Shown here: positions 3,403 to 60,248 of the stretch, one piece after another
Layout of the letters: every line of letters begins with the position of its first letter
Position numbering within the stretch: position 1 is the first letter of the stretch
Origin: Candidatus Aenigmatarchaeota archaeon
Lineage (GTDB): Archaea; Aenigmatarchaeota; Aenigmatarchaeia; PWEA01; JAGHBM01
Length of the DNA: 60,248 nucleotides
Direction: 5' to 3'
NCBI GenBank assembly: GCA_021162085.1
Contig: JAGGZI010000040.1
Location: 1-60,248, forward strand
Notes under the pieces: generated by a model
The model's input: the letters and a program-made list of their open reading frames with translations, nothing else
The model's database searches: none
Told to the model about the DNA's origin: nothing
Translations under genes and position numbers: made by a program

Positions 3403-5403
3403 GTGAAGAAAATATTGGAATTGATTATAGTGGTTTGTATAGTTTTACTTAGCATTGAGTATGTAAAGGCAGGATATAATAATTCAGGAAGTAGCGCAAA
3501 CATTTGTGAGATAGCCCTTAAGATCGATGCTGCCGCCGACGCATCATCATTCAGTCTGTATCAAACGGCAAAGATAATGGTGTACACTATGAAGGCATGT
3601 GGTAGTCCCATAGATGCAGATGTATCCGGATACATAAAGAGACCAACGGGGATAATAGATAATCTAACATTTACCCACATTGATACAGGAATTTATGAAG
3701 CTGAATATATGTTCAACAGCACGGGAGACTATGAGTTATATGCTCAGGCAATTAATGCTACGTGGTGGACATCTGAGGAGTATGGTGGAAAGGTTTGGGT
3801 GAGAGAATACATATCAGTTCCATTTCTTTCCATGTACCTTTCTTTGCCTTATGGAACAAGATACCAAGTAGGGGACACTGTAAGGATATGGGCCCATGTT
3901 GAGGACAGCAACGGACTTCCAATAAACGATGCATCGGTGAACATAACGGTTTTCTATCCAAATCTAACAACAGCTTATGTTTCAGAACAACCAATGACGC
4001 TTTTTGCTAATGGGGATTATTATTATACCTTCACTGCTCCGGGTGTGGAGGGGCAGTACTTTGCCAGAGTTGAAGCAAGGGAAAACTTCTCGTATCAGAG
4101 CAAGTCAAAAACATTTGAAGTTGGAGGATGGGCATCTCAAATTGGAGAGATGAATAAGACTCTTGAGGAAACTGTGGTTCCTTACTTACAAGAGATAAAC
4201 AAGACAGTTCATTCTATAGATGACCTCTTGAATGATTTGAACATAACAATCAACAACATAAATACAGTTGCCGAAGAAATAAACAAAACCATAGGAAGGT
4301 ATACAGTAACTTATTACAACGATTCTGTTGTGAAGAGTTATATACCGGGCTCTGATTTATTACAGGTGATATGGAGAGAAGAAATTGGTGACGGTGAGTC
4401 GTGGATCGAGTACAGGGCAGTTGCAAATAATACTTATAACTTCACAGGTTCTCTGAATTTAACAAACATGGAGGTGGTTGGCTATTCCTGTTATAACTGC
4501 TCCGGATCCGATACTTTATCTATAACAACTACCAGGCTGAAGTATAGTTTTTTGACGAATTACGAAAAAGGATTCGACTTGAGGGTTAAATTAAAGAAAA
4601 AGGTAGGTACGGCGACATTTGATGGAACAATAAATGGAACAAGAAATGAAAACATAACATACTTGGGCAGGTCAGCTGTTACCTCACTGCCTTTTACTTT
4701 TGAGGTAATGGAGACCGCCTTGTCTTCGACGGTCATGAATTCCCTGGAAGAAAATCACAAGGATCTGACCAATGAAGTGGAACAGATAATATCAGACCTT
4801 AGTGCAATAGGGTCCAATGCGGTTGTGAGTAGTGGTGGAGGGAGTGGATACATTTATCAGGGAATAAACAACACAAAGGAAATTCTTGAGGGAGTAAGAA
4901 ATATGCTTGCAACGACAAAGACTCCAACCGCTGAGAGCATATCAGATATTATGGATAGATTGAACGATGCCAAGCAAGAGCTTCTGAATGTAATTGAAAG
5001 GTTGCATAAAGAAAGAAAGAACGAGGCAACGAGTCTTGCGCAATTGTTCTCAAGTCTGGAATCTGCATCAACCGTGACCATGTTGTTAGGACTTCTTTTC
5101 GTTATTTTGGTCATTGGGGTATTTCTTTACATATTGGTTAAATCTCGTGAGGAGGAGTTTGATTTTTCATCATTGCTATTCTGGAGAATGTTTAAGAAGG
5201 GAAGGGACAGCATTTCCAATAAGTTGATGGCATACTCGATTCTCTCTGGAAGAAAGGACATAGCAAATAAATTATTTAAATTATCAATCGCAAAAGATAT
5301 TCTGGAAGAGGGTAAAATGGAAGAGGATGTCAAAGAAGAAGTTAAGGGAGAAATTAAGAAGAGCATAATTGAAAGGTTAAAAGAAAGGTATAGAAAGAGG
5401 TGA
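3403..5403 (+). CDS. Large surface glycoprotein with C-terminal TM anchor
   Basis: Signal peptide KKILELIIVVCIVLLSIEYVKA. Ig-like stretch (YQVGDTVRIWAHVEDSNG...GQYFARVEA). Heptad-like N-x-T-rich stalk. TM VTMLLGLLFVILVIGVFLYILV followed by a K/E-rich tail. Confidence 0.65.
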   Translation: MKKILELIIVVCIVLLSIEYVKAGYNNSGSSANICEIALKIDAAADASSFSLYQTAKIMVYTMKACGSPIDADVSGYIKRPTGIIDNLTFTHIDTGIYEAEYMFNSTGDYELYAQAINATWWTSEEYGGKVWVREYISVPFLSMYLSLPYGTRYQVGDTVRIWAHVEDSNGLPINDASVNITVFYPNLTTAYVSEQPMTLFANGDYYYTFTAPGVEGQYFARVEARENFSYQSKSKTFEVGGWASQIGEMNKTLEETVVPYLQEINKTVHSIDDLLNDLNITINNINTVAEEINKTIGRYTVTYYNDSVVKSYIPGSDLLQVIWREEIGDGESWIEYRAVANNTYNFTGSLNLTNMEVVGYSCYNCSGSDTLSITTTRLKYSFLTNYEKGFDLRVKLKKKVGTATFDGTINGTRNENITYLGRSAVTSLPFTFEVMETALSSTVMNSLEENHKDLTNEVEQIISDLSAIGSNAVVSSGGGSGYIYQGINNTKEILEGVRNMLATTKTPTAESISDIMDRLNDAKQELLNVIERLHKERKNEATSLAQLFSSLESASTVTMLLGLLFVILVIGVFLYILVKSREEEFDFSSLLFWRMFKKGRDSISNKLMAYSILSGRKDIANKLFKLSIAKDILEEGKMEEDVKEEVKGEIKKSIIERLKERYRKR

Positions 5404-45928: not shown

Positions 45929-46255
45929 TTACTTATTTAATCCCATACAGCACATCGATTCTGCCTTCTCTAGTTTTTTTTGGTTGTTGGGAGGATTCCA
46001 TTTATAACCCAATGTACAGTTTATCGCATCCACAAGGTCTCCATAGTTGCTCATGTCGCTTGCTTTAATCTTATCATCGCATCCTCCGGCAGAAACGAAT
46101 TTCTGACACTCGGCACTGAGTTTTGCCTGACATTTCATGGTACTTGATGGTGTTCCAAATGCACCAACGAAGAAAGCCACAATTCCAAGGAGCACTATCA
46201 GTCCAACGGCAAGTATTATTATTGTATTTATCGGTATTGACATACCTTTTTTCAT
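45929..46255 (-). CDS. Pilin-like protein with class III signal peptide and 6-Cys C-domain (paralogue A)
   Basis: MKKG|MSIPINTIIILAVGLIVLLGIVAFFV, then MKCQAKLSAECQKFVSAGGCDD ... CC. Last gene of the pilus operon. Confidence 0.7.
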   Translation of the reverse strand: MKKGMSIPINTIIILAVGLIVLLGIVAFFVGAFGTPSSTMKCQAKLSAECQKFVSAGGCDDKIKASDMSNYGDLVDAINCTLGYKWNPPNNQKKLEKAESMCCMGLNK

Positions 46256-46265
46256 ATATTCACCT

Positions 46266-46556
46266 TTAGGTTGTGATTGTTGTTGAATTCTGACAACAAG
46301 TATCTCTTACATCTGCTTCACTTATTCCCATACATGATGCTGCATTTTTTAAAGAGTCTAAATCTCCTTTGTTTATGTCATCGCATCCACCAGCTGCAAC
46401 GTATTTGGCACATTCAGCATTCCACTTTGCCTGACATTTCATGGTGTTGCCACCCGGCGTTGCCGAACCCATGAATATGGCAAGAAGTGAGGCAAGCACA
46501 ATCAGCCCAATAACTAATATAATTATCGTATTTATCGACATTGATATTCCTTTCAT
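46266..46556 (-). CDS. Pilin-like protein with class III signal peptide and 6-Cys C-domain (paralogue B)
   Basis: MKG|ISMSINTIIILVIGLIVLASLLAIF, then MKCQAKWNAECAKYVAAGGCDD ... CC. Confidence 0.7.
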   Translation of the reverse strand: MKGISMSINTIIILVIGLIVLASLLAIFMGSATPGGNTMKCQAKWNAECAKYVAAGGCDDINKGDLDSLKNAASCMGISEADVRDTCCQNSTTITT

Positions 46557-46566
46557 TTTAAATCAC

Positions 46567-48912
46567 CTACTCCCATGGGTTTGAAACAACTACAGCTTTT
46601 ATCCAATCTATTTTCAAATTAAAACCATTACCATTCCAATAATTCGGGCATATATCTATTCTTTTCACTTTTCTACTGGTATCGAATCCATTAAAGGTGA
46701 TTTCTTCTGGATATGAAATTGAATTTACCGTATAGTAATCATGACCATTCATTAATACATTTCCAAGTCCAAGTTTACTGCAATCATCACCCACATAACA
46801 TACAAATGGATAAATATCAATATTCGGATTTGTAAAGCTGTCTGTCGCTGAGTATCTCATTTTCAATGAGTAGATGTACATTGGATTACTTTCTAAATCT
46901 ATTTTTATACATTGTGCAACAAAATAGTCTTTGAGACCAGCCGATGAGTAATAAGCGTTACACCTTCCAGTCTGGGTTGAAGAACCCTTCATATCAAGAC
47001 ATAGATAGTCACTATCTTGCCAATCGCTGCAATACCGCCGAATACAATTATCATCATTACAGTCCTGGTCAATTGTTATATCATTTTCACATGTTGTAGA
47101 TCGGCAGCCTCCTTTAATTTTTGTTATGTTTGGATTTAGACATATAGTTTTTAAGCATCCCTCATTTGTGCACAAGCCACTTACCTGTGAGCAGCTTGGG
47201 CAGAACTCACTTCTGATACAATAACAAGCACTCGAAGATGCATCACCACAACCAAAGTTATTTCCTGTTGTGTCAAAGTAAAATGGAAGTTGTTTATAAC
47301 TTATGCAAGTGTCTAAAATTGAAAGAGGACCAGCCACACATTGCGGATTTGGAGTAGTAATTGTGTTTCTGCATGCTCCATAAGAATTGGCATTTAAATG
47401 CTTACATGCAGCATCACAGGGATCTGCAGGCTTTTGTGCACATCCTGAGTTGTCGTTGTTACACCCATAAGCACATTGTTGAATTGGTCCGACAGATTCC
47501 ACACATCCATCTCCATTCGTATCCGCACAATTTAGTAAATATGCTTTACCATCCTCTCCTACATAGCATGTTGTGCCACCATTTTCAAGTCCATGTTGTA
47601 CACATATTTGTTCCGGTTGACATGGAGGTTTAGTTAAGCTCTCATTTGTTGTGAATTTGACCCAGGCAATTTTATGGTCTTTGCTATCACGTTTTGGACA
47701 AATATCTATCATATCCAATTTTTTGTCTACAAAGATATGGTTCAAAACATTGTATCCCTCAACATCTTCTGCAATGGTATGCCACCCATCACCATTGTTA
47801 TTACAACTTCCATCGTAACAACCAAAAACATAAAGGTCATTGTGTCCGTCATCAGAGCCAGACCTGAACCACAAATCTTTTACATATACAGATTTTCCAT
47901 AGAAATCTTTGAAATTTAATCGAAGACATTGGCCAGTTTCGATGTTAGACCTTTTACAATCTCCGGATTGATCTAAACATATTGTAATATCATTATTTAC
48001 ATTTTGGTATGGATCTGAGTATAAATAATATATTTTTAGCGGAATACTAGTACAATCCGAAGATATGCCATCACTTATTCTATCTTTTTGGCAACCAGTT
48101 GACGAAACACTACAACCAATTTTCTCCAATAAACTCTTGCCTGGAACTTTTTCAGAATTGGCACAGTATTCAGTAAAATTATTAATATTTCCATACTCTT
48201 TTTTACAATCTTCTTCCGTTTTATCTATTGGGCAACATACATTTAGATTTTTATTCCATTCCCAATCTTCCGGACAACAATAATAATATGTGAAATTTGT
48301 ATAAGTTTCTCCAAAAATCCCAGAATAGTGTGAAGAGATTTTATATTTAAAAAACAAATTTTGTCCACTGAAGTAATTATTTTCAACGGGAGATGATAAA
48401 GAATATATACAATTATGCACTCCTTTATATTCACACTTTGGTTGATCTTTCACGCTATTGGTGAAGTCTGGGGAAGTAGAGTCAAAACCTTTGTATATCT
48501 CCGTTTTAAGTGCTGAAGTTTCTCCATGAGACATACCAGTAAGAACTCTCCCCGAAGCTTGAGTATTTTTTATAATACAACTTCCTTCTCCTCCAGGAAC
48601 ATCACATCTCCACTTAGTCTCAATTTCATGAGATTTTTTTTCATTTTTATTGTCTACTTTTTGTTCTATAACTACAAAAGTATATTCCGGTGACGATTGA
48701 TCACTCAGGCAGGTTATTGAGGCTCCCTGATTCTCATTCTCACTTCCATTGAACATTTCCCACGCATTGCTTATGATGTCACTAACTGAACGAATTGGCT
48801 TAGCCTGGTGCATCATACCAAGACCAAACCCAAGGACGGCGAGGGCAAGGATTATGGTTACAACAACAATTATAACACTACTACCGACACCCTTACCATT
48901 TCCCATATTCAT
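46567..48912 (-). CDS. Giant Cys-rich pilin-like protein (781 aa), putative tip adhesin
   Basis: MNMGNGKG|VGSSVIIVVVTIILALAVLGFGL class III-like N-terminus. Roughly 70 Cys. Internal duplication of a ~110-135 aa module ending IDICP...W[VI]K[FA]. Confidence 0.7.
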   Translation of the reverse strand: MNMGNGKGVGSSVIIVVVTIILALAVLGFGLGMMHQAKPIRSVSDIISNAWEMFNGSENENQGASITCLSDQSSPEYTFVVIEQKVDNKNEKKSHEIETKWRCDVPGGEGSCIIKNTQASGRVLTGMSHGETSALKTEIYKGFDSTSPDFTNSVKDQPKCEYKGVHNCIYSLSSPVENNYFSGQNLFFKYKISSHYSGIFGETYTNFTYYYCCPEDWEWNKNLNVCCPIDKTEEDCKKEYGNINNFTEYCANSEKVPGKSLLEKIGCSVSSTGCQKDRISDGISSDCTSIPLKIYYLYSDPYQNVNNDITICLDQSGDCKRSNIETGQCLRLNFKDFYGKSVYVKDLWFRSGSDDGHNDLYVFGCYDGSCNNNGDGWHTIAEDVEGYNVLNHIFVDKKLDMIDICPKRDSKDHKIAWVKFTTNESLTKPPCQPEQICVQHGLENGGTTCYVGEDGKAYLLNCADTNGDGCVESVGPIQQCAYGCNNDNSGCAQKPADPCDAACKHLNANSYGACRNTITTPNPQCVAGPLSILDTCISYKQLPFYFDTTGNNFGCGDASSSACYCIRSEFCPSCSQVSGLCTNEGCLKTICLNPNITKIKGGCRSTTCENDITIDQDCNDDNCIRRYCSDWQDSDYLCLDMKGSSTQTGRCNAYYSSAGLKDYFVAQCIKIDLESNPMYIYSLKMRYSATDSFTNPNIDIYPFVCYVGDDCSKLGLGNVLMNGHDYYTVNSISYPEEITFNGFDTSRKVKRIDICPNYWNGNGFNLKIDWIKAVVVSNPWE

Positions 48913-48954
48913 AACTTATCACTATAAATCTTCTTCTTCATTATTTTTAAAGAT

Positions 48955-50613
48955 TTATCCGGTCTGAACACAATACAATCTGTTTTTATTATTACATCCA
49001 CTTGAGATTATATCAACCCAGTTGAAACTATTCTCATTTGATAAACCAAGATGGCCAAAGTCCTCGTCGTCTCCTGTAGTCCATCCGTCTTTATCTGATG
49101 TCCAGTCTCTACAAGAATTATTTTCCTCATATTGCCCAGTTTTGTTGCTTCCTGTCCAAACATAATAACCATTCGCGATGAGATTACCATTTTCGTCATA
49201 ATTTATTGCATTTTCTATTGAGCCATCCCACAGGTCATCACAGTCCGTAGATATCACGTCTCCGTGAGTATTCTTTAAGTAACAGTTTGATATTCTATTC
49301 CTGGCATCTGTATTCGAGTCCGATAGGAGTGCTACGAACGTGCCACTTAATCCAGCATTACTTGCAAGTTCCTGACATTTCGCATCTGCTCCACTAAGCC
49401 CACCAAGCGAACCATTGTAAACTTCAGATGTCACGAAGATTATTCTATATGGGGTAACTATGCAACCATTCTCATTTTCACACTTGTCTATGCCACAGTT
49501 ACAGGATTGTTGATACTCACAATAGCAGCTTTGTCCAGACTGGCAGTTGGCTTTTTCTTTCTTCACCCAATAGTTGCATAAGCCACCTGAGCACGCATTG
49601 ACTGGATAATCAATATCACATTTTGAGTCAATGGCACTTTCACATACATTTTCTACTATCCTTGTGAAACTCATCGTATCCTCTATGCCAAATGTTAGAG
49701 CAAGTTTTTTCATGCCATCGGGAGTTGGAATTTTAGTGGATTTATCTATAACACTTACACTTATTACAAATGAAGCTTTGTAGTTGTTGAATCCCATATT
49801 CAATAAATTCATCTTCACCAGTTTTAGTTCCCATTCGATGTTATTATCATTTTTACCATTTGCTATTTCATTCAACTTGGATTGAATTTTGTTTTTAGCT
49901 TCATTTTCGGATAATGTTCCACCTTCAGAGCCGCAGACTTTGACATAATCTAATACATCCTTAAGTTCACTTTTCAAATCATTAATATTATTAACGAAGT
50001 TCTTAGCCTTGTCGTACAAAATGAAGTATTTTGTGGGAATGTCAGTTTCTATCTTTTCATTACCTTCGATTGTTTGATTTAATGATTCATCGCCTTGGTA
50101 TTTGTTGCTTGAGAATAAGTTTGCTTCATAACTTAGTTTTATTTTTGAATTTGTGTAGTCCATTTTTATTTTTGGTGTAGGATCATCGAGATATCTATTA
50201 ACTTTTACGTCAAGGTCAGAAGCGAAGTTATCAAACCATCCTTTATATGTTTCGTTTATTCTGCTACCAAGCTGGGAGGCAACATCATCCTTACTTGGAT
50301 AATTATCCTTTGACCAGCATACATATCCTTCGCATTTGCCCCATGTGTTGTATTCGGTAGAATCTTTATCCAATCCACCATTTAAGCCGTTCTCATACAG
50401 AGAGTTCACTCCGGACAACCAGAGAGCATTTCCTAAAAATTGTTTATCTGCATCATAGTGTGCCTGTGCTTCCATGAGTTTCCCTTCGTCAAGCATTATG
50501 GTGTATCCCACAGAATTCTTTGTGAGTTTAATAGATTCATACGAAATTACTCCACCAACAATTATTCCAGTGATTATTATTAGTGCAATCACGAGTCCAG
50601 CGATGCCCTTCAT
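48955..50613 (-). CDS. Pilin-like protein (552 aa) with C-terminal endostatin/C-type-lectin-like domain
   Basis: MKG|IAGLVIALIIITGIIVGGVISY N-terminus; Cys-knot-like middle. C-terminus: GSLGGLSGADAKCQELASNAGLSGTFVALLS ... VWTGSN ... CRDWTS ... RLYCV. Confidence 0.7.
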   Translation of the reverse strand: MKGIAGLVIALIIITGIIVGGVISYESIKLTKNSVGYTIMLDEGKLMEAQAHYDADKQFLGNALWLSGVNSLYENGLNGGLDKDSTEYNTWGKCEGYVCWSKDNYPSKDDVASQLGSRINETYKGWFDNFASDLDVKVNRYLDDPTPKIKMDYTNSKIKLSYEANLFSSNKYQGDESLNQTIEGNEKIETDIPTKYFILYDKAKNFVNNINDLKSELKDVLDYVKVCGSEGGTLSENEAKNKIQSKLNEIANGKNDNNIEWELKLVKMNLLNMGFNNYKASFVISVSVIDKSTKIPTPDGMKKLALTFGIEDTMSFTRIVENVCESAIDSKCDIDYPVNACSGGLCNYWVKKEKANCQSGQSCYCEYQQSCNCGIDKCENENGCIVTPYRIIFVTSEVYNGSLGGLSGADAKCQELASNAGLSGTFVALLSDSNTDARNRISNCYLKNTHGDVISTDCDDLWDGSIENAINYDENGNLIANGYYVWTGSNKTGQYEENNSCRDWTSDKDGWTTGDDEDFGHLGLSNENSFNWVDIISSGCNNKNRLYCVQTG

Positions 50614-51035
50614 TTGTAAAACCTCAACTGAATATTTTCATATCCACCTAGAACTGCAATCTTTCTGAAGGCGGTGTAGTGTTTCCCATTCAAATCTATG
50701 TTATTTGGGTTAAGTGTTTGGTCCTTAAACACCAACACGGCTTTGTAATTTCCAAACATATCGTTGAATTTGTTTTTGATAATTGTCTTTATGTTGTCAT
50801 CTCCTGTGATAAGGTATTCACTTATAAGATCTCTCATAGTAATTCCGTTGACCCTCATTCCAAGGAAAGAGTTAAATGTTAATTCTGGAAAAGTTGGTTC
50901 GGCTATCTCTTCTTTTATATCTGACTTGAATTCCAAGAGGTGATAAGAGTGTAGAACTGTCAGAAGCATAACTGCAAATATTATACCAATCGATATCATT
51001 GCAATGAAAAAACATGTGACAATTCCCTTTCTCAT
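50610..51035 (-). CDS. Pilin-like protein (141 aa)
   Basis: MRKG|IVTCFFIAMISIGIIFAVMLL. 4-nt overlap with the downstream gene. Confidence 0.6.
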   Translation of the reverse strand: MRKGIVTCFFIAMISIGIIFAVMLLTVLHSYHLLEFKSDIKEEIAEPTFPELTFNSFLGMRVNGITMRDLISEYLITGDDNIKTIIKNKFNDMFGNYKAVLVFKDQTLNPNNIDLNGKHYTAFRKIAVLGGYENIQLRFYK

Positions 51036-51046
51036 AAACTACACCA

Positions 51047-51583
51047 CTAAATGGGAGGTAACGATGTTGAACCTTTTGGTGGAAGCTTGTAATATGTCTT
51101 CAACTTGAGGATTGCAGGCTCGTCTCCACCATCAGACCTTATTAGAACAGGCAATGTGATCTGAATTCCAGGCTTTTTACCAAAGAGCCACAGGAATGGA
51201 AGTATCATGGATTGTTTTGGCTCATTCGTGAGGTCATAACTAAAGTCCCATTTGTCATTGGAGGAACTTATCGTTAAGTCAAAGTACGTCCTGTACATCT
51301 TTACACAATCTATGTCACCAGTTTGTTTCCTTTCATCCAGGAGAGTTTTATTCAAAATTCCCATTTCTCCTGTGCTGAAGCAATCCTTTGAAGTTAATAT
51401 CCTACTGAGCATGGACATCTGTACAATTTCTTGAGTCACTATGTCTGCTCCTTCCTCTTCCTGCTTGAGTATCCCAGCGAAGAATCCTATGGAAAAGGCG
51501 AGCGCAAAGACTAGCAAAATGAAGGCAAAAATACAAACAATCGTGTTTATTCCAAATCCTTTGTTAGAGATCACTCTTTCCAT
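51047..51583 (-). CDS. Pilin-like protein (178 aa)
   Basis: MERVISNKG|FGINTIVCIFAFILLVFALAF. Confidence 0.6.
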   Translation of the reverse strand: MERVISNKGFGINTIVCIFAFILLVFALAFSIGFFAGILKQEEEGADIVTQEIVQMSMLSRILTSKDCFSTGEMGILNKTLLDERKQTGDIDCVKMYRTYFDLTISSSNDKWDFSYDLTNEPKQSMILPFLWLFGKKPGIQITLPVLIRSDGGDEPAILKLKTYYKLPPKGSTSLPPI

Positions 51584-51993
51584 ATGGATATAACATCACC
51601 ATTTTTGTCTATATGAACTATCGTATTTCCATGGTTGCATTCTATGGTTGACGGCACCTCGATTTTTGTGTCGTTTAAGAAGTACATACCATATGTCATC
51701 TGATTTAGACCTTTGGTTGTGGTTTTTATGTACTTATTTGTTGAGTCAAGTGTCATAGTGCATGATAGGGCACCTATTTTAATTTTTGCTGTTTGGTTCT
51801 GCGGGCTTGAGGAAATTATGTTCATGATACCCACAACGCTCTGTGTTATTGATGTAGCCCTTGAGAGACCCAATATATTGCTTCCCCATCCGCCAACCTT
51901 AGCATACACAACACCAAAGAAAAATGCGATTATCACAGTTATCAAAAGCATCATCATAAGATTCATCATGGCTCCCTTTTTCATTTTCACCAA
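51571..51993 (-). CDS. Pilin-like protein (140 aa)
   Basis: MVKMKKG|AMMNLMMMLLITVIIAFFFGVVYA. Overlaps both neighbours. Confidence 0.6.
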   Translation of the reverse strand: MVKMKKGAMMNLMMMLLITVIIAFFFGVVYAKVGGWGSNILGLSRATSITQSVVGIMNIISSSPQNQTAKIKIGALSCTMTLDSTNKYIKTTTKGLNQMTYGMYFLNDTKIEVPSTIECNHGNTIVHIDKNGDVISIWKE

Positions 51994-52802
51994 CCCAGAC
52001 TATGGTGTTTTGAACAACTCCAGTCTTTGGACTTTTCCGGCCAATTTGTATCTACTGGTTCGGATGTTATACCAAACGGTCCTTCAAAAAGCCTAATAGT
52101 AGATTTAATTATAGTACCTCCTAAATCAACAGGATCATTGTTCCAGCAAAAGTTTTTATCCGATGTGAATCCATCCTTCTTACCAAGATTTCTTATCTTA
52201 CAAATTTTTATTTTGTCTTTAGTTTTGTCGTAGTAAACCTTAACCTCTGCTCCACATGGGCTTAAAAGCCAGAATGGTTCCACCTTACCTGATAGGTCCT
52301 TATCAAATTCCACTTTGTCGTTGTTGCTCATTTCAACCATTCCATAGCAGATTCCGTTAGGACATTTATCATAAACAACATGTTGAACATCTGTGAATGT
52401 TATTTCATAAAGTATGATTCCTATGCTACCTTTTTCTCCACCTTTCTCTCTGCTATGGTATATTATCCATTTTGGGTCGTTTCCATAACTGTAGTCACCA
52501 CCATGTACATAATATGTTATACCCTTTGTCAGTTGTTGTGGCATGGTTATGTTAACTTTTTCCTCGCAGTCCTCAGGGTGTCCGTTTGTCTTGCTCTCTT
52601 CCTCCTGAACGCACTGATAGACTCCTTTTATTGCATCTCCAAGCCTAAGAGCACTACCGGTTGTTGCGGCTCCCTCGGAGAGAACTTGATTGGCACCAAG
52701 GGCATGCCATATAACTACGAGGAGTACGAATCCAATTGCTACGGACAGGAAAATGGTCAACAAGTGTCCAACTTCAGTTCCCTTCACAAAATCACCCAAC
52801 AT
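51987..52802 (-). CDS. Pilin-like protein (271 aa)
   Basis: MLGDFVKG|TEVGHLLTIFLSVAIGFVLLVVIW. Several Cys in the globular part. Confidence 0.6.
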   Translation of the reverse strand: MLGDFVKGTEVGHLLTIFLSVAIGFVLLVVIWHALGANQVLSEGAATTGSALRLGDAIKGVYQCVQEEESKTNGHPEDCEEKVNITMPQQLTKGITYYVHGGDYSYGNDPKWIIYHSREKGGEKGSIGIILYEITFTDVQHVVYDKCPNGICYGMVEMSNNDKVEFDKDLSGKVEPFWLLSPCGAEVKVYYDKTKDKIKICKIRNLGKKDGFTSDKNFCWNNDPVDLGGTIIKSTIRLFEGPFGITSEPVDTNWPEKSKDWSCSKHHSLGW

Positions 52803-52938
52803 TTATGTTACCTACAATGTCTTCTATTCTTGGTTTTATTCCCATCAATATTATTATGAGTATTATTGATAACACTATCAAAAACACTATTACAGTCCAT
52901 AGTACTCCAGATGTTTTCTCCCATGTTAGAAGGCCCAT
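52792..52938 (-). CDS. Mini membrane/pilin-like protein (48 aa, not in ORF track)
   Basis: Hand translation: MGLLTWEKTSGVLWTVIVFLIVLSIILIIILMGIKPRIEDIVGNINVG. The ATG overlaps the upstream stop (TAATG). Its own stop overlaps the next gene's start region. Confidence 0.45.
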   Translation of the reverse strand: MGLLTWEKTSGVLWTVIVFLIVLSIILIIILMGIKPRIEDIVGNINVG

Positions 52939-53093
52939 TATCCACCACCCTGAAGTACCTTGCCCATTTCATTTATAAGGTCAAATGTTTTTCCATGAAC
53001 TTTTCCATAAAGGAAGAAAATGAAAAGTGCAATGATTATGAAAATTATTATCACCAACAATGCAGCAAGTACGCCTCCAATACCTTTTCTCAT
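52938..53093 (-). CDS. Mini-pilin-like protein (51 aa, not in ORF track)
   Basis: Hand translation: MRKG|IGGVLAALLVIIIFIIIALFIFFLYGKVHGKTFDLINEMGKVLQGGG. ATGA overlap with the upstream stop. Paralogous to 53090..53257. Confidence 0.5.
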   Translation of the reverse strand: MRKGIGGVLAALLVIIIFIIIALFIFFLYGKVHGKTFDLINEMGKVLQGGG

Positions 53094-53257
53094 GTGTTCA
53101 CCTTTCCTATAACTTGGTTGAATATTTTTTCAAGGGCATCAAGCCCAAATTTTTTTCCCTGATTAAGTATGAGAACAACTATACCGAGGATGACAAGTAT
53201 TAATATGAAGGCTATAAGAAACCATATTATTTGTGATATACCTTTTTTCTTCAACAT
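53090..53257 (-). CDS. Mini-pilin-like protein (55 aa)
   Basis: MLKKKG|ISQIIWFLIAFILILVILGIVVLILNQGKKFGLDALEKIFNQVIGKVNT. The internal Met is preferred to the ORF-track start at 53284. Confidence 0.5.
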   Translation of the reverse strand: MLKKKGISQIIWFLIAFILILVILGIVVLILNQGKKFGLDALEKIFNQVIGKVNT

Positions 53258-53445
53258 CCACAAGGACCTCCCGGTAGAAGCCATGTTCTTAAAGGACCTG
53301 CAATCTTAAAATTACAGTAAATCCAACATCCAGCATTTTTCAGTGATAAACCATATCCCTTTACACCACTATAGACAGCAAAGACAAACATGAAGAGAAT
53401 TAAGAACACTATCAGGGCAAGTATGACTGCAACTGTCTTATTCAT
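53251..53445 (-). CDS. Small membrane protein with 4-Cys tail (64 aa)
   Basis: MNKTVAVILALIVFLILFMFVFAVY, then ...NAGCWIYC...GGPCGC. AAGGAG lies upstream of the ATG. Confidence 0.45.
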   Translation of the reverse strand: MNKTVAVILALIVFLILFMFVFAVYSGVKGYGLSLKNAGCWIYCNFKIAGPLRTWLLPGGPCGC

Positions 53446-53477
53446 ACTAAGATTTTATTCTCCTTAAAATATAAAAC

Positions 53478-53609
53478 CTACGGAAGGACAAATTTGTATG
53501 TACTGCTCAAAGCTTTACTTACATAGGGAACTATGAGAGAAAATGATATTGCAGCAACCACAATGAACACTATTATTATGAGGACGATTTTGAGTGTGGT
53601 ATCTTCCAT
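53478..53609 (-). CDS. Small single-TM protein (43 aa)
   Basis: MEDTTLKIVLIIIVFIVVAAISFSLIVPYV.... ATG 53609 lies 4 nt after the stop of 53614..53733. Confidence 0.4.
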   Translation of the reverse strand: MEDTTLKIVLIIIVFIVVAAISFSLIVPYVSKALSSTYKFVLP

Positions 53610-53613
53610 ATTA

Positions 53614-53733
53614 TCACAACCAGTTGCCAAAGAAGTTGTAAAACATACCAACAACCCCAAGCAATATTAAAAGGGCAATTGCAATGGCTATTACAACTTC
53701 CTTAAGTCCATATCCAACCAAACCTTTATGCAA
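53614..53733 (-). CDS. Possible mini-pilin-like protein (39 aa, TTG start, not in ORF track)
   Basis: Hand translation: (M)HKG|LVGYGLKEVVIAIAIALLILLGVVGMFYNFFGNWL. The TTG overlaps the FlaJ-like stop. Weakest member of the series. Confidence 0.3.
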   Translation of the reverse strand: MHKGLVGYGLKEVVIAIAIALLILLGVVGMFYNFFGNWL

Positions 53734-55798
53734 GTGAACCACCCGTCAGCAAATCTTCTATCATCGGTCCAAACATACTGTACGTTACGACCAAACTCAA
53801 TGTATATATTATTAAACCAATTAATAAACTCCACCCAACAAGGTCCCTTTCACTTATCTTGTCTCCTGGACCGTTCTCAACGCCATTTATGAGATAAGAA
53901 AGAAGATATATGACCTCTATCGTGTATATGCCTACAATAATCTGGAAGAATCCAAGTGGCATTATCTTTCCAACTCCTCCCCAACCTCCTATCATTGTTT
54001 GAGTAAATCCGGGAATCTTTGAGCTCTGGAGGTTTGTCATGCTTTCTCCAAGGGCCTTGAAAATCATCATCATTATTGCCGCCATGGTTATGGTCACACC
54101 GGATATCAATGGAGCAAGAAACATTGATAGGAATTTCATACTTGTTGTAACTTCTCCAAGCATCTCCTTGAGGTCCTCATTTATCTGATGAAGTTGTTTT
54201 ATGTAACGTGATATTGCCATGGCGCTCAACGCAGCGTTCTTAACTCCCTTCTTTGCTGCCTCAAATATTATTCTCATAACGTTCACGATAAGCTTTGATG
54301 GATAATCCCATACTGCTCCGAACTTCTTATCAAACAATGCTGCCTCAAGTGCCAATCCACCCTGCCTCATATTCCTTAAAGTCTTCTTGAACATCTGAGA
54401 TATTGTGAGGTCGGAAGTCTTTTCAACGGTTTGTTCCATGGCCTTCTCCATGGGATTACCAAGAGCCATCCTGCTGCCAAACTGGAAGAGTGCTTCTGAG
54501 AACTCGTCCTGAAGCTTCCTGACGTTGTCCCTTATCTTGGTTTTGGTTCCGCTGTCTATTATAAACACTGAGGATATACCAAGTCCAATTCCCCATGTTA
54601 TTATTAAGGAGTACATAAGATTTCCAAGGCTTATCTGGGATGCACTACCAAGGGTCAAGAGTGCCCCAGGTACTATCAGTGCCAATGATATGAATAGTCC
54701 AATTGGCCACAGGGAAATATCTTTTTTAACATTTCCAATGGTTATTTTTATTCTTCCAACGGGGCTGTACTTCGGGTGCATCGATATGTCAGGAGAGTAA
54801 TAGCTTACTGGTCTATAGGATAGAACTTTTTTGGTTATGGCAAATATGGTCAGTGGCAGGATTACATCATACATAACAATCAATAACAAGGGATCTATGG
54901 TTTCGCTCATCATCAGCATGACAACAGGCATCATAACAAGGAGAAGTATTGGTAGCATTATACCAAGGGCATATATTAACATGACTGGCATCCTCAGGGA
55001 TTGTGAGTAGTGTTTCATCCTTTCCTTTGTTCCCTCAAGTATTCTATTGACTGCCTCATCCAGCATGGCATTTCTTCTTGTTTCAGGTTGCTCCATGGAA
55101 GACCTTATGAGGTGCATCGACTCTATGAAATCTTCGTTACCCTTCCATTTATCCACATAATCCTCCACAGCATCGTAAATGTTTTCATACCTTCTTACAT
55201 CAACGTCCCATAGAATTTTCCTCAGGTCGTAGGCAAGTGGACCCGTGAGGTTTTGCGCGGCAAATTTTATTGCACCTTCCATGTTTGGGGAGGCTCTCAT
55301 GTATATTACCATGTACAGGACGGCAAGGATTATTTCCTGAGAAGCATTAACCCTAAATTGATTTGCTAGATACATTGGATATTTCATCAAACCATAGATC
55401 ACCAGAACTGAGAGTACGAACAACGATATGGTGAGGGTGAAGTTAACAGTGACGAACAGTACTATTACGGCAATGATCATTAAGAGAATACCCATGATAA
55501 TTGCAAGGGAGAATGCACCAACGGGCGTTATCTTCAAGTGGGCAAAGTCTATTGCCATTTGCATGTTCTTTCTCGTTTCCTTATCAGGCTCTATGTTCAA
55601 TGGCTCAAAAATCTTACATAATTTTTCATAAAGTGTTGTTTTTTCTCTCATCTCTTCTTCTTTGAAGGTTTGATATTCCTTGCTGTGGGGGTTTATTTCA
55701 AATTCTTCCGGTAACTCGATTGCTGGCATTGACTCATTCAGAATTCTCTTCAACTCTTCAATCCTAGCTTTTCTAAGGTCTTTGGGGGGTTTTGCCAT
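53726..55798 (-). CDS. FlaJ/TadC-type (T2SS-F-like) polytopic platform protein
   Basis: 690 aa. Two cytoplasmic helical domains alternate with clusters of TM helices. Located directly downstream of the secretion ATPase. Confidence 0.8.
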   Translation of the reverse strand: MAKPPKDLRKARIEELKRILNESMPAIELPEEFEINPHSKEYQTFKEEEMREKTTLYEKLCKIFEPLNIEPDKETRKNMQMAIDFAHLKITPVGAFSLAIIMGILLMIIAVIVLFVTVNFTLTISLFVLSVLVIYGLMKYPMYLANQFRVNASQEIILAVLYMVIYMRASPNMEGAIKFAAQNLTGPLAYDLRKILWDVDVRRYENIYDAVEDYVDKWKGNEDFIESMHLIRSSMEQPETRRNAMLDEAVNRILEGTKERMKHYSQSLRMPVMLIYALGIMLPILLLVMMPVVMLMMSETIDPLLLIVMYDVILPLTIFAITKKVLSYRPVSYYSPDISMHPKYSPVGRIKITIGNVKKDISLWPIGLFISLALIVPGALLTLGSASQISLGNLMYSLIITWGIGLGISSVFIIDSGTKTKIRDNVRKLQDEFSEALFQFGSRMALGNPMEKAMEQTVEKTSDLTISQMFKKTLRNMRQGGLALEAALFDKKFGAVWDYPSKLIVNVMRIIFEAAKKGVKNAALSAMAISRYIKQLHQINEDLKEMLGEVTTSMKFLSMFLAPLISGVTITMAAIMMMIFKALGESMTNLQSSKIPGFTQTMIGGWGGVGKIMPLGFFQIIVGIYTIEVIYLLSYLINGVENGPGDKISERDLVGWSLLIGLIIYTLSLVVTYSMFGPMIEDLLTGGSLA

Positions 55799-55835
55799 AA
55801 CTAGAATTATGTTTTCCCTTTATAAAAAGTTTGAA

Positions 55836-56180
55836 CTAAAGAGTTGGCTCAGTTGTATATTTAATTCTTTCCTCTACGGACTTGCTCTCATGGAGAACTT
55901 CCTCGTACATATTGTATGGTATTATTCTAAGAGAATCAAGGTATTGCCTTAGTTCATCAATTGCCTTTTTAAAATGTCTCTTTTTTCCTGCAAGAAAGAA
56001 ATATGTGACTGCATTTCTCAGATGATCCACTTCTCCATTTGAAAATATTCTCTTACTTTGCTTCTCATACTCCTCAAATTCCTTTTTACCCATTTCATTT
56101 AGACGCCTGATCTTTTCTTGCTCCGATAAATCAAAAAAATCTTCTCCAATTTTCTTTTTAAGTTCTTCCTCAAATAACAT
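55836..56180 (-). CDS. Hypothetical cytoplasmic helical protein (114 aa) between ATPase and platform genes
   Basis: K/E-rich helical sequence without a TM segment. No family recognised. Confidence 0.45.
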   Translation of the reverse strand: MLFEEELKKKIGEDFFDLSEQEKIRRLNEMGKKEFEEYEKQSKRIFSNGEVDHLRNAVTYFFLAGKKRHFKKAIDELRQYLDSLRIIPYNMYEEVLHESKSVEERIKYTTEPTL

Positions 56181-56310
56181 AAATAAGAAATCTTCATAAA
56201 AAGCTATTTAAATTTAATGTTCCCATTGAACTAAAAAATGCAAAATTTAAAGGATAAGAGCCTTGAGAGGCTAAAATTTAAAATTTTCTTATCGTAAGAA
56301 ACCGTTAAAT

Positions 56311-58584
56311 TTATATATGAGTTGTCTGAGTTTTCTTCCATTTTTTTATCTGTTCCTTCATCCAGTCATCCCACATCTTGTATGCCCTTTCCGGTGGTAT
56401 CGAGCCCACCTCTTCCCTTAGCTCCTCAGAGATTAAATGAAACTTCTCGTTTGATAACACCACAAATGGGGCTTCCATGAGTTCTTTTATTCCCGTGTTC
56501 AGGGCATAGTTTGTTATGGCCTGTTTTATTTTTCCTCTGAGGTTTATGTTGTCCCATACTGCTGACCAGTTGCCTGACCATTCTCTTATGTTAGATGCTA
56601 TTTCATTCAATATAACACTTTCCCCGTTTAGAAGTGTGGATGTTGGCTTTAGAGTATCCTCCTTTGCCGAATATTCCATAAGGTTCACGAAGCCTCCCTC
56701 TTCAACGGGGTCTTTCCTCCAGTGCTTTCTTACTTCCGTTACGGTTGTTACCCTCCTGAATCTATGAAGTCCATCTGCTGACTTGAGTATGTTGCATATT
56801 ATCACAAGGTCGGTTGCCTTGAAGGATGTTACTGGAACTCCCAGGTCATTTACAACACGGTCAAATATACCATAAGCACTTTCCCCGTGAATTGTCCCAG
56901 CAACTGTGTTTGCAAGAGCACCAATTCTCATTGCCTCGTAAAGTGCCTTTGCCTCTGTGGACCTGACCTCACCAAGTATTAGACAGGAATCTCCAAGTCT
57001 TAGGGCAGTTCTTATGGCTTCCTCGGTTGGCATCTCAGTTTCCACCTGTGTTATCACGGAACGGGATTTTAATCTCTCTATGTTGAATCCAAGTTCTCTC
57101 ATCCTCTTGACACTCAGTTCAAGTGTATCCTCAACGGTGACTATTCTATATTTCTTCATTATCTCAAGCATTGACGCATTTAGGAGTGAGGTTTTTCCTG
57201 ATGATCTGGTCCCGCCAATGAGGAATGTTCTTGAACCATCGATTACAAAGGACATCAGCCCTGCAAATAGTGGATTAAAGAATCTTATATCTGGCTTAAG
57301 GTAAAGTGGGTAAGTCCATGGATCATCTCTGTGCCTCCTTATTGAGAATCCAAATCCATCAGGAGATAGGGATCTCGTTATCACGGTTATTCTTGCCCTT
57401 CCCCCGGGCACCATAGCCTCCGTGTCAAGCACCGGATTTGCCTCATCCAGTGGTCTACCAGACATCATCCTGAATCTTGTTACCCAATATTCGGCATCCT
57501 CATGAGTTGGTATCAGATTGGTTTCACACTCCTGGTAATCCTGATGAAATATGTATATGGGTATCTCCCCAATTGGAGAATTTATGTATATGTCTTGAAT
57601 CTTTTTGTCTGCGAGCAGAACCTCAAGTATTCCAAGTCCCCCGGTATATCTTGTCAGTATCTCGGTAAGTTCTTCCACGTCCTGAGTCGAAAGCCTGATT
57701 CCCATCTGATCAGATAAGTCTGTTATGAGGTCTCTTCCTATGTTAGAAAATACTTCCCTCATTTTTTCTGGCTCGGTGAATTCTAAGGCTCTCGGCTTAT
57801 GTTCGGTTAGATATCTCCTTGCGGCATCTAAAATTGTGTATTTGTCCTCACCCAATCTGAACTCAGGGGGAACAACATGGTATACATATCTAACGGAGTT
57901 TGGTACTTTGTATATCTCTACCTCCACATCACCACCAATCTTATACCTATCTATTATCTCTCCGCCCCTTGGTGGCTGGGTCATGTACTTAGTTAACATG
58001 AAGTTTGGTCTAGTTGTGGGGTGGAATATCTCCCTGTATACGCCTCTATCGCCAATTTTATATTTGGACATGAATGGTTTTGCCTTCTTTATCAGATCAA
58101 GATTCTCTAATGTAGTTATGGTTGGAATCAATACGTTATCAAGTAGTTTCTGATAACATATTTGAGTTCTTCCCGTAACGGACTCTATTTTTATCCTAGT
58201 ATGCCTTATCAATCTCTTTATTTTTTCGTAGGCGGCAATCGGGTCGGACCTCAGATCGCTGAGCACGATACTTTGAAATTTAGAAAAAACTTCGCCCGTA
58301 TAGCCCATGCACTCTCTTCCAGCCCTTAAAGGGCTTATCAACTTCTTCGTTTTTATTATCTCATTTATTGCAGAGGCAAGTTGCGCAAGCATTTTAGTTT
58401 GTTCAAACGGGTATTCGTATTCCCTATTTTTAGCGAGAACTATGCTCTTGACGTTCTTGGTCTCTATAAGCTTGTCAATCGTTCGTGCCATACAGGCAGG
58501 ATAATCCTCTATACTGGAACCATATATACAACCAAGGCAATTAACCCTCATTGTTCCGTCCTTCATCTCATACTCGCAGACCAT
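56311..58584 (-). CDS. Type II/IV secretion-family ATPase (FlaI/PilB/VirB11-like) with long N-terminal extension
   Basis: Walker A IGGTRSSGKTSLLNA, Asp box VTVEDTLEL, Walker B CLILGEVRSTEA, His-box-like GTIHGES. The N-terminal ~300 aa include C3/C16/C19/C31. Confidence 0.9.
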   Translation of the reverse strand: MVCEYEMKDGTMRVNCLGCIYGSSIEDYPACMARTIDKLIETKNVKSIVLAKNREYEYPFEQTKMLAQLASAINEIIKTKKLISPLRAGRECMGYTGEVFSKFQSIVLSDLRSDPIAAYEKIKRLIRHTRIKIESVTGRTQICYQKLLDNVLIPTITTLENLDLIKKAKPFMSKYKIGDRGVYREIFHPTTRPNFMLTKYMTQPPRGGEIIDRYKIGGDVEVEIYKVPNSVRYVYHVVPPEFRLGEDKYTILDAARRYLTEHKPRALEFTEPEKMREVFSNIGRDLITDLSDQMGIRLSTQDVEELTEILTRYTGGLGILEVLLADKKIQDIYINSPIGEIPIYIFHQDYQECETNLIPTHEDAEYWVTRFRMMSGRPLDEANPVLDTEAMVPGGRARITVITRSLSPDGFGFSIRRHRDDPWTYPLYLKPDIRFFNPLFAGLMSFVIDGSRTFLIGGTRSSGKTSLLNASMLEIMKKYRIVTVEDTLELSVKRMRELGFNIERLKSRSVITQVETEMPTEEAIRTALRLGDSCLILGEVRSTEAKALYEAMRIGALANTVAGTIHGESAYGIFDRVVNDLGVPVTSFKATDLVIICNILKSADGLHRFRRVTTVTEVRKHWRKDPVEEGGFVNLMEYSAKEDTLKPTSTLLNGESVILNEIASNIREWSGNWSAVWDNINLRGKIKQAITNYALNTGIKELMEAPFVVLSNEKFHLISEELREEVGSIPPERAYKMWDDWMKEQIKKWKKTQTTHI

Positions 58585-58750: not shown

Positions 58751-60248
58751 ATGAAAAAATTAATGATTCTTGTTTTTTTGTTTTTTGTAGTTTTGCTTAC
58801 GCCTAGAACCTTTGCAACCGGAGAGCCAATTCTCATCAACACCACCACAGACAAATCCACATACAACGAAGGAGACACAGTTTACTTCATTTCATACGTA
58901 AACGACACCAGCGGTGACTACGTAAAATTACTCATAGACAACAGTACAGACTTCACAAATTGTAATTATTCTGTAACCACCGGTTGCATAGCTGCATCTT
59001 CACCTTTACAAACAACAGGCTCACCACAACAACTGAACGCAACTTTAACCGCCTCACAAGACACAACCTGGTATGCAAAAGTCTGTGATGATGGTGGATT
59101 ATGTTATGGACCAAATGAGTGGTGTTACCAAGAATTTGCAAATAAATCTACTAATTGTGGTGGATTAGGAAATGGAAGTTATGTTTTTGATGGAGATTGG
59201 AACAATGAAAATAACTTAATAGACGGAGATTGGAGCAGTTATGCCCGCCTTGGTGGATGTAACGTCGGTGATCTTTATATGAATTATACAATACCTTCCA
59301 CCGTAATTAATGCGATGGTTGAAGACAAATACCAATATGTTATTGCTGGAGGAGCAATATGTCCTTCCTTTAGAGAATTTATCTCAATTTCTTATCAAAA
59401 TTCAAGTAAAGAAATTAAAAGCATTTGTGATGGGGAAAATATATTGGGATTATCAAATAATAAAATAAGAGATAATCAAGTGATAAAGAAGACAGAGCAT
59501 TATTACAATGGTCTCCTGTATAAATTTTATGGAAATAATTTTGAATTAGAGGCTACAGCCAATCATATGATATATGTTAAAAACAATGGTTATATAAGAG
59601 CTGATAAAGTGAAAATAGGAGATGATTTCTTAATTCTAAAAGAAAATAAATCACTAAGTTATGAAAAAGTAAAAAAAATAGAGTCTTATTGGTATAATGG
59701 AAGGGTGTATGACTTAGCTACTGAAACACAAAACTTCTTTGCAAATAATATATTGGTTCATAATGTATATGATGATTCAAGATTGAGATGTTATAATGGA
59801 AGTGAATGGGAGACAGTGAAGGATCTCAGCGATAGTGGCGTTCTTGTAAATGAAAATGCCACCATTCCAAATAGTTGCTTGCAAGGAGATGTACTACAAC
59901 TTAAGTATCATTTTGATACCGAAGCTTCTCCCGCATGTTACGCAAATTTTTACGAAGAAGCAATGTGGTGGAATATGTCTTTTACAGGTAGTTTCACTGT
60001 ATCATCACCAGAGGTCATAGACATGACAGTTCACGACGTGCCCATACAGTTTGGTAATGATGACCCCGGAACTGTTAACAAGTCGGCACAGGTTGGAAAT
60101 GGTTTCCCAATGATAGTTACCATAGAGCCAACCACAACAGTCAGCACAAATTTGACCCTAAGAGGATTGAACAACTTCTCATCTGGCTCAAGTTATTTCA
60201 ACATAGGAAATTTAACATATTCTAACGTTTCAACAATTGGGACCGGAA
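58751..60248 (+). CDS. Secreted glycoprotein with embedded Hint (intein-like) domain, 3'-partial
   Basis: Hand translation is open from ATG 58751 to the window end (not in the ORF track because there is no stop). Signal peptide MKKLMILVFLFFVVLLTPRTFA. Many N-x-S/T sequons and Cys. Ends in an IQFGNDDPGT module like 14..2218. Confidence 0.75.
   Translation, partial: MKKLMILVFLFFVVLLTPRTFATGEPILINTTTDKSTYNEGDTVYFISYVNDTSGDYVKLLIDNSTDFTNCNYSVTTGCIAASSPLQTTGSPQQLNATLTASQDTTWYAKVCDDGGLCYGPNEWCYQEFANKSTNCGGLGNGSYVFDGDWNNENNLIDGDWSSYARLGGCNVGDLYMNYTIPSTVINAMVEDKYQYVIAGGAICPSFREFISISYQNSSKEIKSICDGENILGLSNNKIRDNQVIKKTEHYYNGLLYKFYGNNFELEATANHMIYVKNNGYIRADKVKIGDDFLILKENKSLSYEKVKKIESYWYNGRVYDLATETQNFFANNILVHNVYDDSRLRCYNGSEWETVKDLSDSGVLVNENATIPNSCLQGDVLQLKYHFDTEASPACYANFYEEAMWWNMSFTGSFTVSSPEVIDMTVHDVPIQFGNDDPGTVNKSAQVGNGFPMIVTIEPTTTVSTNLTLRGLNNFSSGSSYFNIGNLTYSNVSTIGTG
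59426..59764 (+). other. 113-aa Hint / mini-intein-like domain inside the secreted protein
   Basis: Starts with Cys (SI|CDGENILGL). Block B is ELEATANHMIYV (TxxH); block F/G is GRVYDLATETQNFFANNILVHN. The next residue is Val, not C/S/T. No homing-endonuclease insert. Confidence 0.65.

Follow-up and report, generated by a model that had tools for sequence, protein, structure and literature searches.

What is built by an operon in which a single secretion-type motor is followed by an unbroken run of 14 mostly pilin-like proteins? The question is raised by contig JAGGZI010000040.1 of a Candidatus Aenigmatarchaeota archaeon (assembly GCA_021162085.1, a metagenome-assembled genome), whose 60,248 nucleotides (positions 1 to 60,248; hereafter 'the window') were analysed in full. 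Between positions 45,929 and 58,584 the minus strand carries genes for an ATPase, a 114-aa protein and a polytopic platform protein, followed by 14 open reading frames (ORFs). The operon probably encodes the motor that assembles a type IV pilus-like filament, together with most if not all of its subunits, in this DPANN archaeon, itself tiny and probably reliant on a host. It contains the generic components of an archaeal type IV filament, namely an ATPase, an adjacent platform protein of the T2SSF family and subunits of which one or more bear a class III (prepilin) signal peptide.

The ORF list confirmed the single-strand arrangement of the original prediction, with all 17 genes on the minus strand (to which all operon coordinates below refer). 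The 14 downstream ORFs specify, in order, products of 42, 43, 64, 64, 51, 48, 271, 140, 178, 141, 552, 781, 96 and 108 aa. Stop and start codons overlap or nearly touch, as had been noted: the extremes are a 47-nt overlap and a 42-nt gap, and most junctions are overlaps of 1–17 nt or gaps of 10–11 nt. A GGTG-type ribosome-binding motif is found upstream of most operon genes; for example, a Shine-Dalgarno-like GGTGA precedes the gene of the 96-aa pilin.

The identity of the motor was established from the ATPase (56311..58584; 757 aa), which matches Pfam T2SSE (3.6e-15) and carries the Walker A sequence GTRSSGKTS (residues 458–466) together with LILGEVR (535–541) and TIH (564–566). Its nearest relative in the PDB is Archaeoglobus fulgidus GspE (2OAP; 1e-27), followed by CpaF (3e-18) and FlaI (1.5e-14). 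The predicted FlaI/PilB-type ATPase, a member of the PilB/FlaI/TadA superfamily, is thus borne out. Since all three solved relatives align only from residue ~285 on, the preceding ~285 residues represent an N-terminal extension, for which no family match was found. A conserved four-Cys segment (MVCEYE..NCLGC..AC; residues 1–31, window 58492–58584, minus strand) opens this extension and, judging from its sequence, may bind metal. Among NCBIfam models the ATPase scores best with FlaI (1.5e-36) and also matches TadA, VirB11 and BasE, all far under their cut-offs. Taken by itself, the top rank of FlaI would suggest an archaellum, the rotary swimming filament. Against this, the FlaI score is 126 bits for a cut-off of 550, the solved structures nearest to the ATPase are the A. 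fulgidus GspE and CpaF, with FlaI more distant, and an archaellin (PF01917, Arch_flagellin), a FlaH/KaiC-like ATPase, FlaF/FlaG and FlaCDE/FlaX were undetected among the operon proteins. Membership in the archaellum class was therefore rejected, and an archaellum here is scarcely credible.

The platform protein (53726..55798; 690 aa) is encoded by a single gene of the TadC/FlaJ/PilC type. It has ~9 predicted transmembrane (TM) segments, and all six of its orthologs that were searched match T2SSF (best 3.1e-7), which upholds the predicted FlaJ/TadC-type assignment; no match was found in the PDB with either the single sequence or the profile. The gene adjoins that of the ATPase in 66 of 84 related loci. 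Between the two lies the gene of the 114-aa protein (55836..56180), a charged protein without predicted TM segment, consistent with the cytosolic location first proposed for it. No family was found for it in Pfam or NCBIfam, and its homologs are limited to the closest relatives (loci L003–L005); other relatives have a different gene at this position, or none. In the complete Aenigmatarchaeota genome CP066684.1, a FeS_assembly_P gene (PF01883; L001 12259–12555) lies between the ATPase and platform genes.

The evidence that links the 14 downstream ORFs to this motor is in their N-termini. A class III-like start was defined by [KR][GA] within the first 20 residues, no charged residue or proline at +1/+2, and an 18-residue window with a mean Kyte-Doolittle hydropathy of at least 2.0, a rule that overlooks clear cases such as KG|D. 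Strict matches were found in 10 ORFs within the 10.4 kb downstream of the ATPase. Over the other 45.9 kb, with both strands counted, two ORFs matched, both with K-A. The enrichment is ~45-fold relative to the rest of the window (Poisson probability ~8e-14). Furthermore, the 271-aa protein fails the rule solely through T-E at +1/+2, and because its orthologs begin MKKG|ITSW and MRKG|ITTW it was counted as the eleventh class III protein. Across the 11 K-G sites, the residue at +1 is I, M, A, F, V, L or T. The original description of the 14 ORFs as mostly pilin-like is therefore fair (11 of 14), and its count of at least 11 ORFs with K-G directly before the hydrophobic helix stands as a count; the 42-aa ORF passes the rule in an atypical form, with ~9 residues between the K-G and the helix.

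Conservation of these sites was found at several levels. Glycine follows the last basic residue in 11 of the 14 ORFs and is kept in orthologs that are otherwise 25–60% identical, and K-G is retained in the orthologs even of tiny ORFs. The site KG|IS, present in two operon ORFs, is the FlaFind-predicted processing site given for the characterized Sulfolobus pilin UpsB (PMC4371748 Table 1). Moreover, in the 43 related loci with enough DNA downstream of the ATPase to be scanned, 166 class III-like starts were found on the operon strand (a few of them internal to the platform gene) versus 9 on the opposite strand.

The distribution of the locus was examined through its ATPase. More than 4400 homologs of the ATPase were found. 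The top 120 are mostly labelled Aenigmatarchaeota and are at least 56% identical (at least 58% if the intein-bearing ones are excepted). In one-genome-per-species contigs, at least 592 loci harbour a relative, and the best 80 of these, with 50–84% ATPase identity, come from Aenigmat-, Nanohalo-, Woese- and Nanoarchaeota, the Nanohaloarchaeota including the complete genomes SG9 and M3_22. Intein domains (PF14890 and PF14528) are present in several ATPase orthologs of 900–1270 aa (P0038, P0055, P0070, P0091, P0098 and P0101); these inteins and the 50–84% identity across DPANN phyla together suggest that the ATPase is under very strong constraint. In L003–L005, where the ATPase is 84% identical, the 14 ORFs occur in the same order, barring the last two, which fall beyond the ends of the retrieved loci (a 108-aa ortholog is present on the same 42-kb contig), and L009 (ATPase 69% identical) retains seven of the 14. 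A recurring layout of tiny TM ORFs, mid-size class III proteins, giants and small pilins was found in L006, L009, L019, L025, L054 and L085, with one or two class III, mostly Cys-rich giants per locus and terminal pilins of ~100–135 aa with Cys; this architecture extends to Nanohaloarchaeota and further DPANN. All 14 ORFs of the operon are under purifying selection. Identity in the closest relatives is highest for the motor (84% and 76%) and lowest for the giants (42% and 36%). On sequence grounds, a slowly evolving motor combined with fast-evolving giants is the pattern expected of surface or adhesin proteins.

Directly after the platform gene come six tiny membrane ORFs (42–64 aa), which fall into two groups by their N-termini: (i) three with K-G, namely the 42-aa mini-protein (53614..53742), with HKG, the ~9-residue spacer and then the TM helix, and two mini-pilin candidates, a Flp-sized ORF of 64 aa (53090..53284; KKKG|ISQIIW), whose true start is probably M10 at 53257, and one of 51 aa (52938..53093; MRKG|IGGVL); (ii) three with a TM helix and without canonical K-G, namely the 43-aa protein (53478..53609), which has an ATG start in an open frame that extends to a TTG at 53660, the other 64-aa protein (53251..53445), which ends in CxxxC...PGGPCGC, and the 48-aa protein (52792..52938), with a conserved MGFLTW N-terminus. 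Orthologs of the 42-aa ORF begin MAKG|LIGYG (L005), MRKG|TSTM (L009) and ..GGKG|DISIG (L006), and those of the 51-aa mini-pilin begin MRKG|MSG and MKKG|YTG. The 43-aa ORF is 60–63% identical in L003–L005 and has a positional equivalent in L009. The 64-aa protein at 53251..53445 is 80% identical in L003–L005, and its family, with a conserved C-terminal CxxxC...PGGxCGC, was found only in L004, L005, L006 and L009, being duplicated in L009. For every tiny ORF the nonsynonymous divergence (pN; 0.10–0.26) is far under the synonymous one (pS; 0.50–0.72): pN and pS are 0.13 and 0.71 for the 42-aa ORF, 0.23 and 0.55 for the 43-aa ORF, 0.11 and 0.67 for the 64-aa protein at 53251..53445, 0.16 and 0.50 for the mini-pilin at 53090..53284, 0.17 and 0.61 for the 51-aa mini-pilin, and 0.15 and 0.72 for the 48-aa protein. 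Since their order is conserved in relatives and pN is far below pS, the 42–64 aa ORFs are, from their sequences, real genes. No significant match to Flp_Fap was found; the sole one (E 0.09) is far under the cut-off and lies outside the N-terminus.

Four mid-size class III proteins follow as minor-pilin candidates: 271 aa (51987..52802; VKG|TEVG, 8 Cys), 140 aa (51571..51993; MKKG|AMMNL), 178 aa (51047..51583; NKG|FGINT) and 141 aa (50610..51035; MRKG|IVTCF). The 271-aa and 140-aa proteins have no Pfam or NCBIfam match, the former having three database homologs only. The 178-aa protein has matches in seven loci, including L009 and L006, with a ratio of nonsynonymous to synonymous substitution rates (dN/dS) of ~0.07. 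Profile-profile comparison, with shallow profiles, revealed no relation among the four beyond the N-terminal helix.

Next to these are the two giants, whose Cys-rich nature was confirmed by count: 20 Cys in the 552-aa protein (48955..50613; MKG|IAGLV) and 52 in the 781-aa protein (46567..48912; GKG|VGSSV). The 552-aa protein is identical to the NCBI entry 'hypothetical protein J7K87_03300' (Candidatus Aenigmarchaeota archaeon). Its C-terminal domain (residues ~390–552) matches Pfam Endostatin (8.3e-7) and DUF1554 (1.2e-5), and the protein matches NCBIfam LenA/LenB (2.3e-5, at 24 bits versus a cut-off of 300). In an AlphaFold2 (AF2) model this domain has a predicted local distance difference test (pLDDT) score of ~90, and Foldseek aligned it with endostatin (1dy1/1koe; E 1e-9, template modelling score 0.72–0.76), so that an adhesin-type fold is predicted. 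The model is moderate at residues 190–320 and poor at the N-terminus, with residues 44–134 drawn as long helices at pLDDT below 50. In CP066684.1 (L001) the positional equivalent of this giant carries Lectin_C, a C-type lectin domain. The modelled endostatin/C-type-lectin-like domain would fit the role of a tip adhesin for the 552-aa protein, which is thus a candidate adhesin. The 781-aa protein, a second candidate, contains an internal duplication of ~110 aa (E 3e-5), has no Pfam match even at E 10, and shows the highest dN/dS of the operon (~0.39).

The operon ends with two shaft-pilin candidates with six Cys each, of 96 aa (46266..46556; MKG|ISMSINTIIIL) and 108 aa (45929..46255; MKKG|MSIPINTIIIL), which are paralogs (46% identical). 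Their family comprises 240 representative clusters at E<=1e-3. An alignment of 51 of its sequences has K3 and G4 at least 90% conserved, conserved Cys, and the consensus M-K-K-G|x-S-L-P-I-N-x-L-V-I-L-A-I-A...; there is no Pfam family for it, and one of the 51 members matches Pilin_N. The AF2 model of the 108-aa pilin (pLDDT 88) is all-alpha, with a TM helix and three further helices, and the family profile yielded only non-significant matches, to TM helices, among PDB sequences.

Taken together, these genes point to the following mechanism. Eleven proteins would be made with a class III signal peptide (a basic leader, K-G and a ~20-residue helix) and inserted into the membrane, where an aspartic prepilin peptidase of the PibD/FlaK type, encoded elsewhere, would cleave them after the Gly. 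The hexameric ATPase, docked on the platform, would then use ATP to lift the processed subunits from the membrane, their N-terminal helices stacking into a fibre. A priming and tip complex might be formed by the four mid-size proteins, which are unrelated to one another, along with the two Cys-rich giants; at its end the giants would display binding modules, the endostatin/C-type-lectin-like domain of the 552-aa protein and the duplicated Cys-rich modules of the 781-aa protein. The shaft would consist of the two ~100-aa all-alpha six-Cys pilins, or else of the Flp-sized mini-pilins, and the filament would probably serve to attach the cell to a surface or to a partner or host cell. Peptidase processing, the formation of a filament, the choice of major subunit, the position of the tip and the target are what we infer from the gene set, and host attachment may be the function served.

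A number of observations weigh against a pilus-like filament. The scan for class III starts was a home-made stand-in for FlaFind. The platform protein's own T2SSF score (2.2e-4) is under the Pfam cut-off. The predicted head of the 108-aa pilin is all-alpha, unlike the usual alpha-beta pilin fold, and Foldseek returned no PDB match for its model with E <2. Three ORFs (53478..53609, 53251..53445 and 52792..52938) have a plain N-terminal TM helix, so that, of the originally proposed type IV filament with a minor-pilin/tip-adhesin set, the identification stood and an adhesin-type domain was found on one giant, yet 3 of the 14 ORFs are not class III-like. None of the 14 matches a curated pilin family in Pfam or NCBIfam (best UpsA, E 0.08), and the same is true of their counterparts in three other DPANN loci. 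Finally, no prepilin peptidase (peptidase A24) was found among the window ORFs of at least 120 aa with at least three predicted TM segments, or, in 84 related loci, in the DNA up to 10 kb from the ATPase, where eight polytopic GxGD ORFs were examined. The only confirmed polytopic ORFs outside the operon in the window are a PrsW-like protease and an MFS transporter, which bears out the earlier statement that the window lacks a peptidase gene. Prepilin peptidases have been reported in Nanohaloarchaeota and in most archaea with such ATPases, the exceptions being two nanoarchaea.

The last three of these points, the plain helices, the failure to match curated pilin families and the peptidase found neither in the window nor in the 84 locus flanks, would also be expected if the K-G N-termini were ordinary Sec signal anchors, and the 14 surface proteins merely lay beside the ATPase and platform without being assembled by them. 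This explanation is nevertheless very improbable: the Gly after the last basic residue is conserved in otherwise divergent orthologs of 11 of the 14 ORFs, the motif is strongly enriched over the rest of the window, and in dozens of distant genomes it is specific to the strand and the position downstream of the ATPase and platform.

A further explanation accepts the assembly motor and differs in what is assembled: a short pseudopilus (of the Com-pilus, type II secretion system (T2SS) or bindosome-like piston kind) or a surface-display scaffold, serving to take up DNA or nutrients from the host or to place Cys-rich proteins in the envelope. By analogy, the operon layout, with an ATPase, a platform, one or more small pilins and four different mid-size pilin-like proteins together, would also resemble the pseudopilin operons of bacterial comG and T2SS; pili have been proposed to take up DNA in DPANN (PMC9563170); and the conservation of the ATPase (50–84%) in fast-evolving DPANN, together with its inteins, suggests a near-essential role that simple adhesion might not explain. 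However, the operon has no substrate-binding, DNA-binding, ComEA/ComEC-like or nuclease gene, and its lectin-like and Cys-rich extracellular domains indicate binding rather than transport. The BasE model scores 51 bits versus a cut-off of 1000, and no ORF contains a solute-binding domain, so that membership in the bindosome class was rejected. We thus regard a pseudopilus or display scaffold as unlikely, and a pilus-like filament as the better account of the operon.

How does such a filament relate to those already described? The novelty that the original prediction implied did not hold, since the operon is a new member of a type of locus that is already in the literature for DPANN. In cluster-2 DPANN, Aenigmarchaeota among them, Hamm et al. 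2024 (PMC11291902) found two conserved type IV pilus (T4P)-like loci, comprising a CpaF-type ATPase, TadC and coiled-coil proteins, for which they proposed a part in host interaction and gave proteomic evidence of expression in Ca. Nanohaloarchaeum antarcticus; an associated coiled-coil protein resembling viral attachment proteins belongs to their description. Makarova et al. 2019 (PMC6393860) reported that DPANN T4P islands hold unannotated signal-peptide proteins, probably diverse pilins. The present locus lies in the same phyla as the loci of Hamm et al. and likewise has ATPase orthologs beside a TadC-type gene; it is matched here to their locus type as a whole. An entry for arCOG02911, the signature minor pilin of Clade 2/System 2, stands in the Ca. 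Nanohaloarchaeum antarcticus protein table (PMC11291902 supplement); a search of the supplements for arCOG identifiers gave none. Thus, the possibility that an already described T4P subtype had been met again, which was to count against the prediction, applies in part, in that the ATPase/platform locus is published for cluster-2 DPANN. Few or no pilins are annotated in those papers, where the emphasis is on coiled-coil proteins; here the whole downstream run is resolved into six tiny TM proteins, four of middle size, two giants and a pair of ~100-aa pilins. Too strong was the earlier statement that few pilins are usual in described loci: among the 11 genes of the Methanococcus Epd cluster are several for pilins (Sivabalasarma & Albers 2026 preprint; PMC4371748), and pilin-rich operons are therefore not unprecedented.

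The layout is alike to that of 'System 2', for which an extended ATPase N-terminus, a single platform gene, large adhesin-like proteins and multiple pilins, some of which lack a class III motif, have been described (Sivabalasarma & Albers 2026 preprint). The euryarchaeal Clade 2/System 2 pili (for example Haloferax volcanii PilB/PilC; Makarova et al. 2016, PMC4858521) share with the operon the extended ATPase N-terminus, single platform gene, several pilins and adhesins, and the nearest solved ATPase is the Archaeoglobus GspE, so that on described layout the operon may belong with them. Unlike them, no sequence similarity to PilA-type pilins was detected here. Epd of Methanococcus maripaludis (System 1) and bacterial Tad/Flp are similar in having one large operon with many pilins and in their very short helix-only pilins, EpdE and Flp, which the candidates here (mature ~35–50 aa) resemble; in addition, CpaF is the second-best solved relative of the ATPase. 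However, Epd and Tad have two platform genes versus the one of 690 aa here, and the substrates of EppA need Gln at +1, which none of the 11 sites has. Membership in Epd/System 1 was ruled out on these grounds, and membership in Ups/Aap on the UpsA score (E 0.081, 13 bits versus a cut-off of 130), no other match being found.

For the putative tip, analogies may be drawn with two bacterial systems. Diverse minor pilin-like proteins co-encoded with a large adhesin would recall the priming complex of bacterial type IVa pili and T2SS with PilY1, and by this analogy would cap the fibre and bear its binding function; no sequence or fold similarity to that complex was found, the adhesins here carry class III N-termini, and PilY1 is a beta-propeller in contrast to the endostatin/C-type-lectin fold predicted here. 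The C-terminal domain of the 552-aa protein resembles the Leptospira Len outer-surface adhesins in its matches to LenA/LenB and the Endostatin/DUF1554 models and in its endostatin fold, yet its scores are far under the family cut-offs, and in this archaeal protein it is joined to an N-terminus of the pilin type. Modest value is added by the all-alpha Cys-pilin family, which is unclassified, by the adhesin that combines a predicted endostatin fold with a pilin N-terminus and by the conserved module of six tiny membrane proteins; the operon does not reveal a new kind of machine. A bolder proposal, which we offer tentatively, is that the six-Cys all-alpha proteins of ~100 aa could be the major subunit of a structurally new archaeal class of type IV filament for recognizing and holding the hosts of DPANN archaea, with a six-protein tip complex that includes lectin-like adhesins; the six proteins of 42–64 aa could then be either undescribed assembly components or Flp-like subunits.

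The genes on either side of the operon are of ordinary chromosomal character. G+C content is uniform throughout the window (~36–41%) and the flanks contain housekeeping genes, so the operon is part of an ordinary archaeal chromosome, and an origin from a mobile element was ruled out. No tRNA or Rfam elements were found in the window, and a sigma-70/terminator scan of it was uninformative, the source being an archaeon. The terminal small pilins are followed immediately, in the same orientation, by an Alba gene (PF01918; 45543–45839, minus), and further same-strand ORFs downstream are, from their translations, a proteasome alpha subunit and an SBDS-like protein. A pilin block followed by Alba recurs in Nanohaloarchaeota and other archaeal contigs (L043, L054, L062, L070, L085 and L086); in the retrieved upstream flank of the pilin block in L085 and L086, no ATPase or platform gene was found. 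In L085, genes for a DsbA-like thioredoxin and FeS_assembly_P (PF01883) lie just upstream of the giant/mid-size/pilin block (3595–4616), and the DsbA-like protein would fit disulfide formation in Cys-rich subunits. On the other side of the operon, a divergent gene (58751–60248, plus strand) that runs off the contig end encodes a secreted protein with a Sec-type signal peptide, MKKLMILVFLFFVVLLTPRTFA, and 12 Cys in its 499 visible residues. A mini-intein/Hint domain (~59426–59764; PF14890, 3.1e-12), unusual in an exported protein, is contained within it.

Most DPANN archaea are uncultured, of very small size and unable to do without host contact, and how they find and hold their hosts is an open question. 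Few systems are shared by several DPANN phyla, and this locus is among them. A very conserved motor combined with fast-evolving Cys-rich giants, as seen here, would be expected of an organelle for host recognition. The operon described here contributes the full parts list of one clean example, in which a lectin-like adhesin, the minor pilins and the shaft pilin all have concrete candidates.

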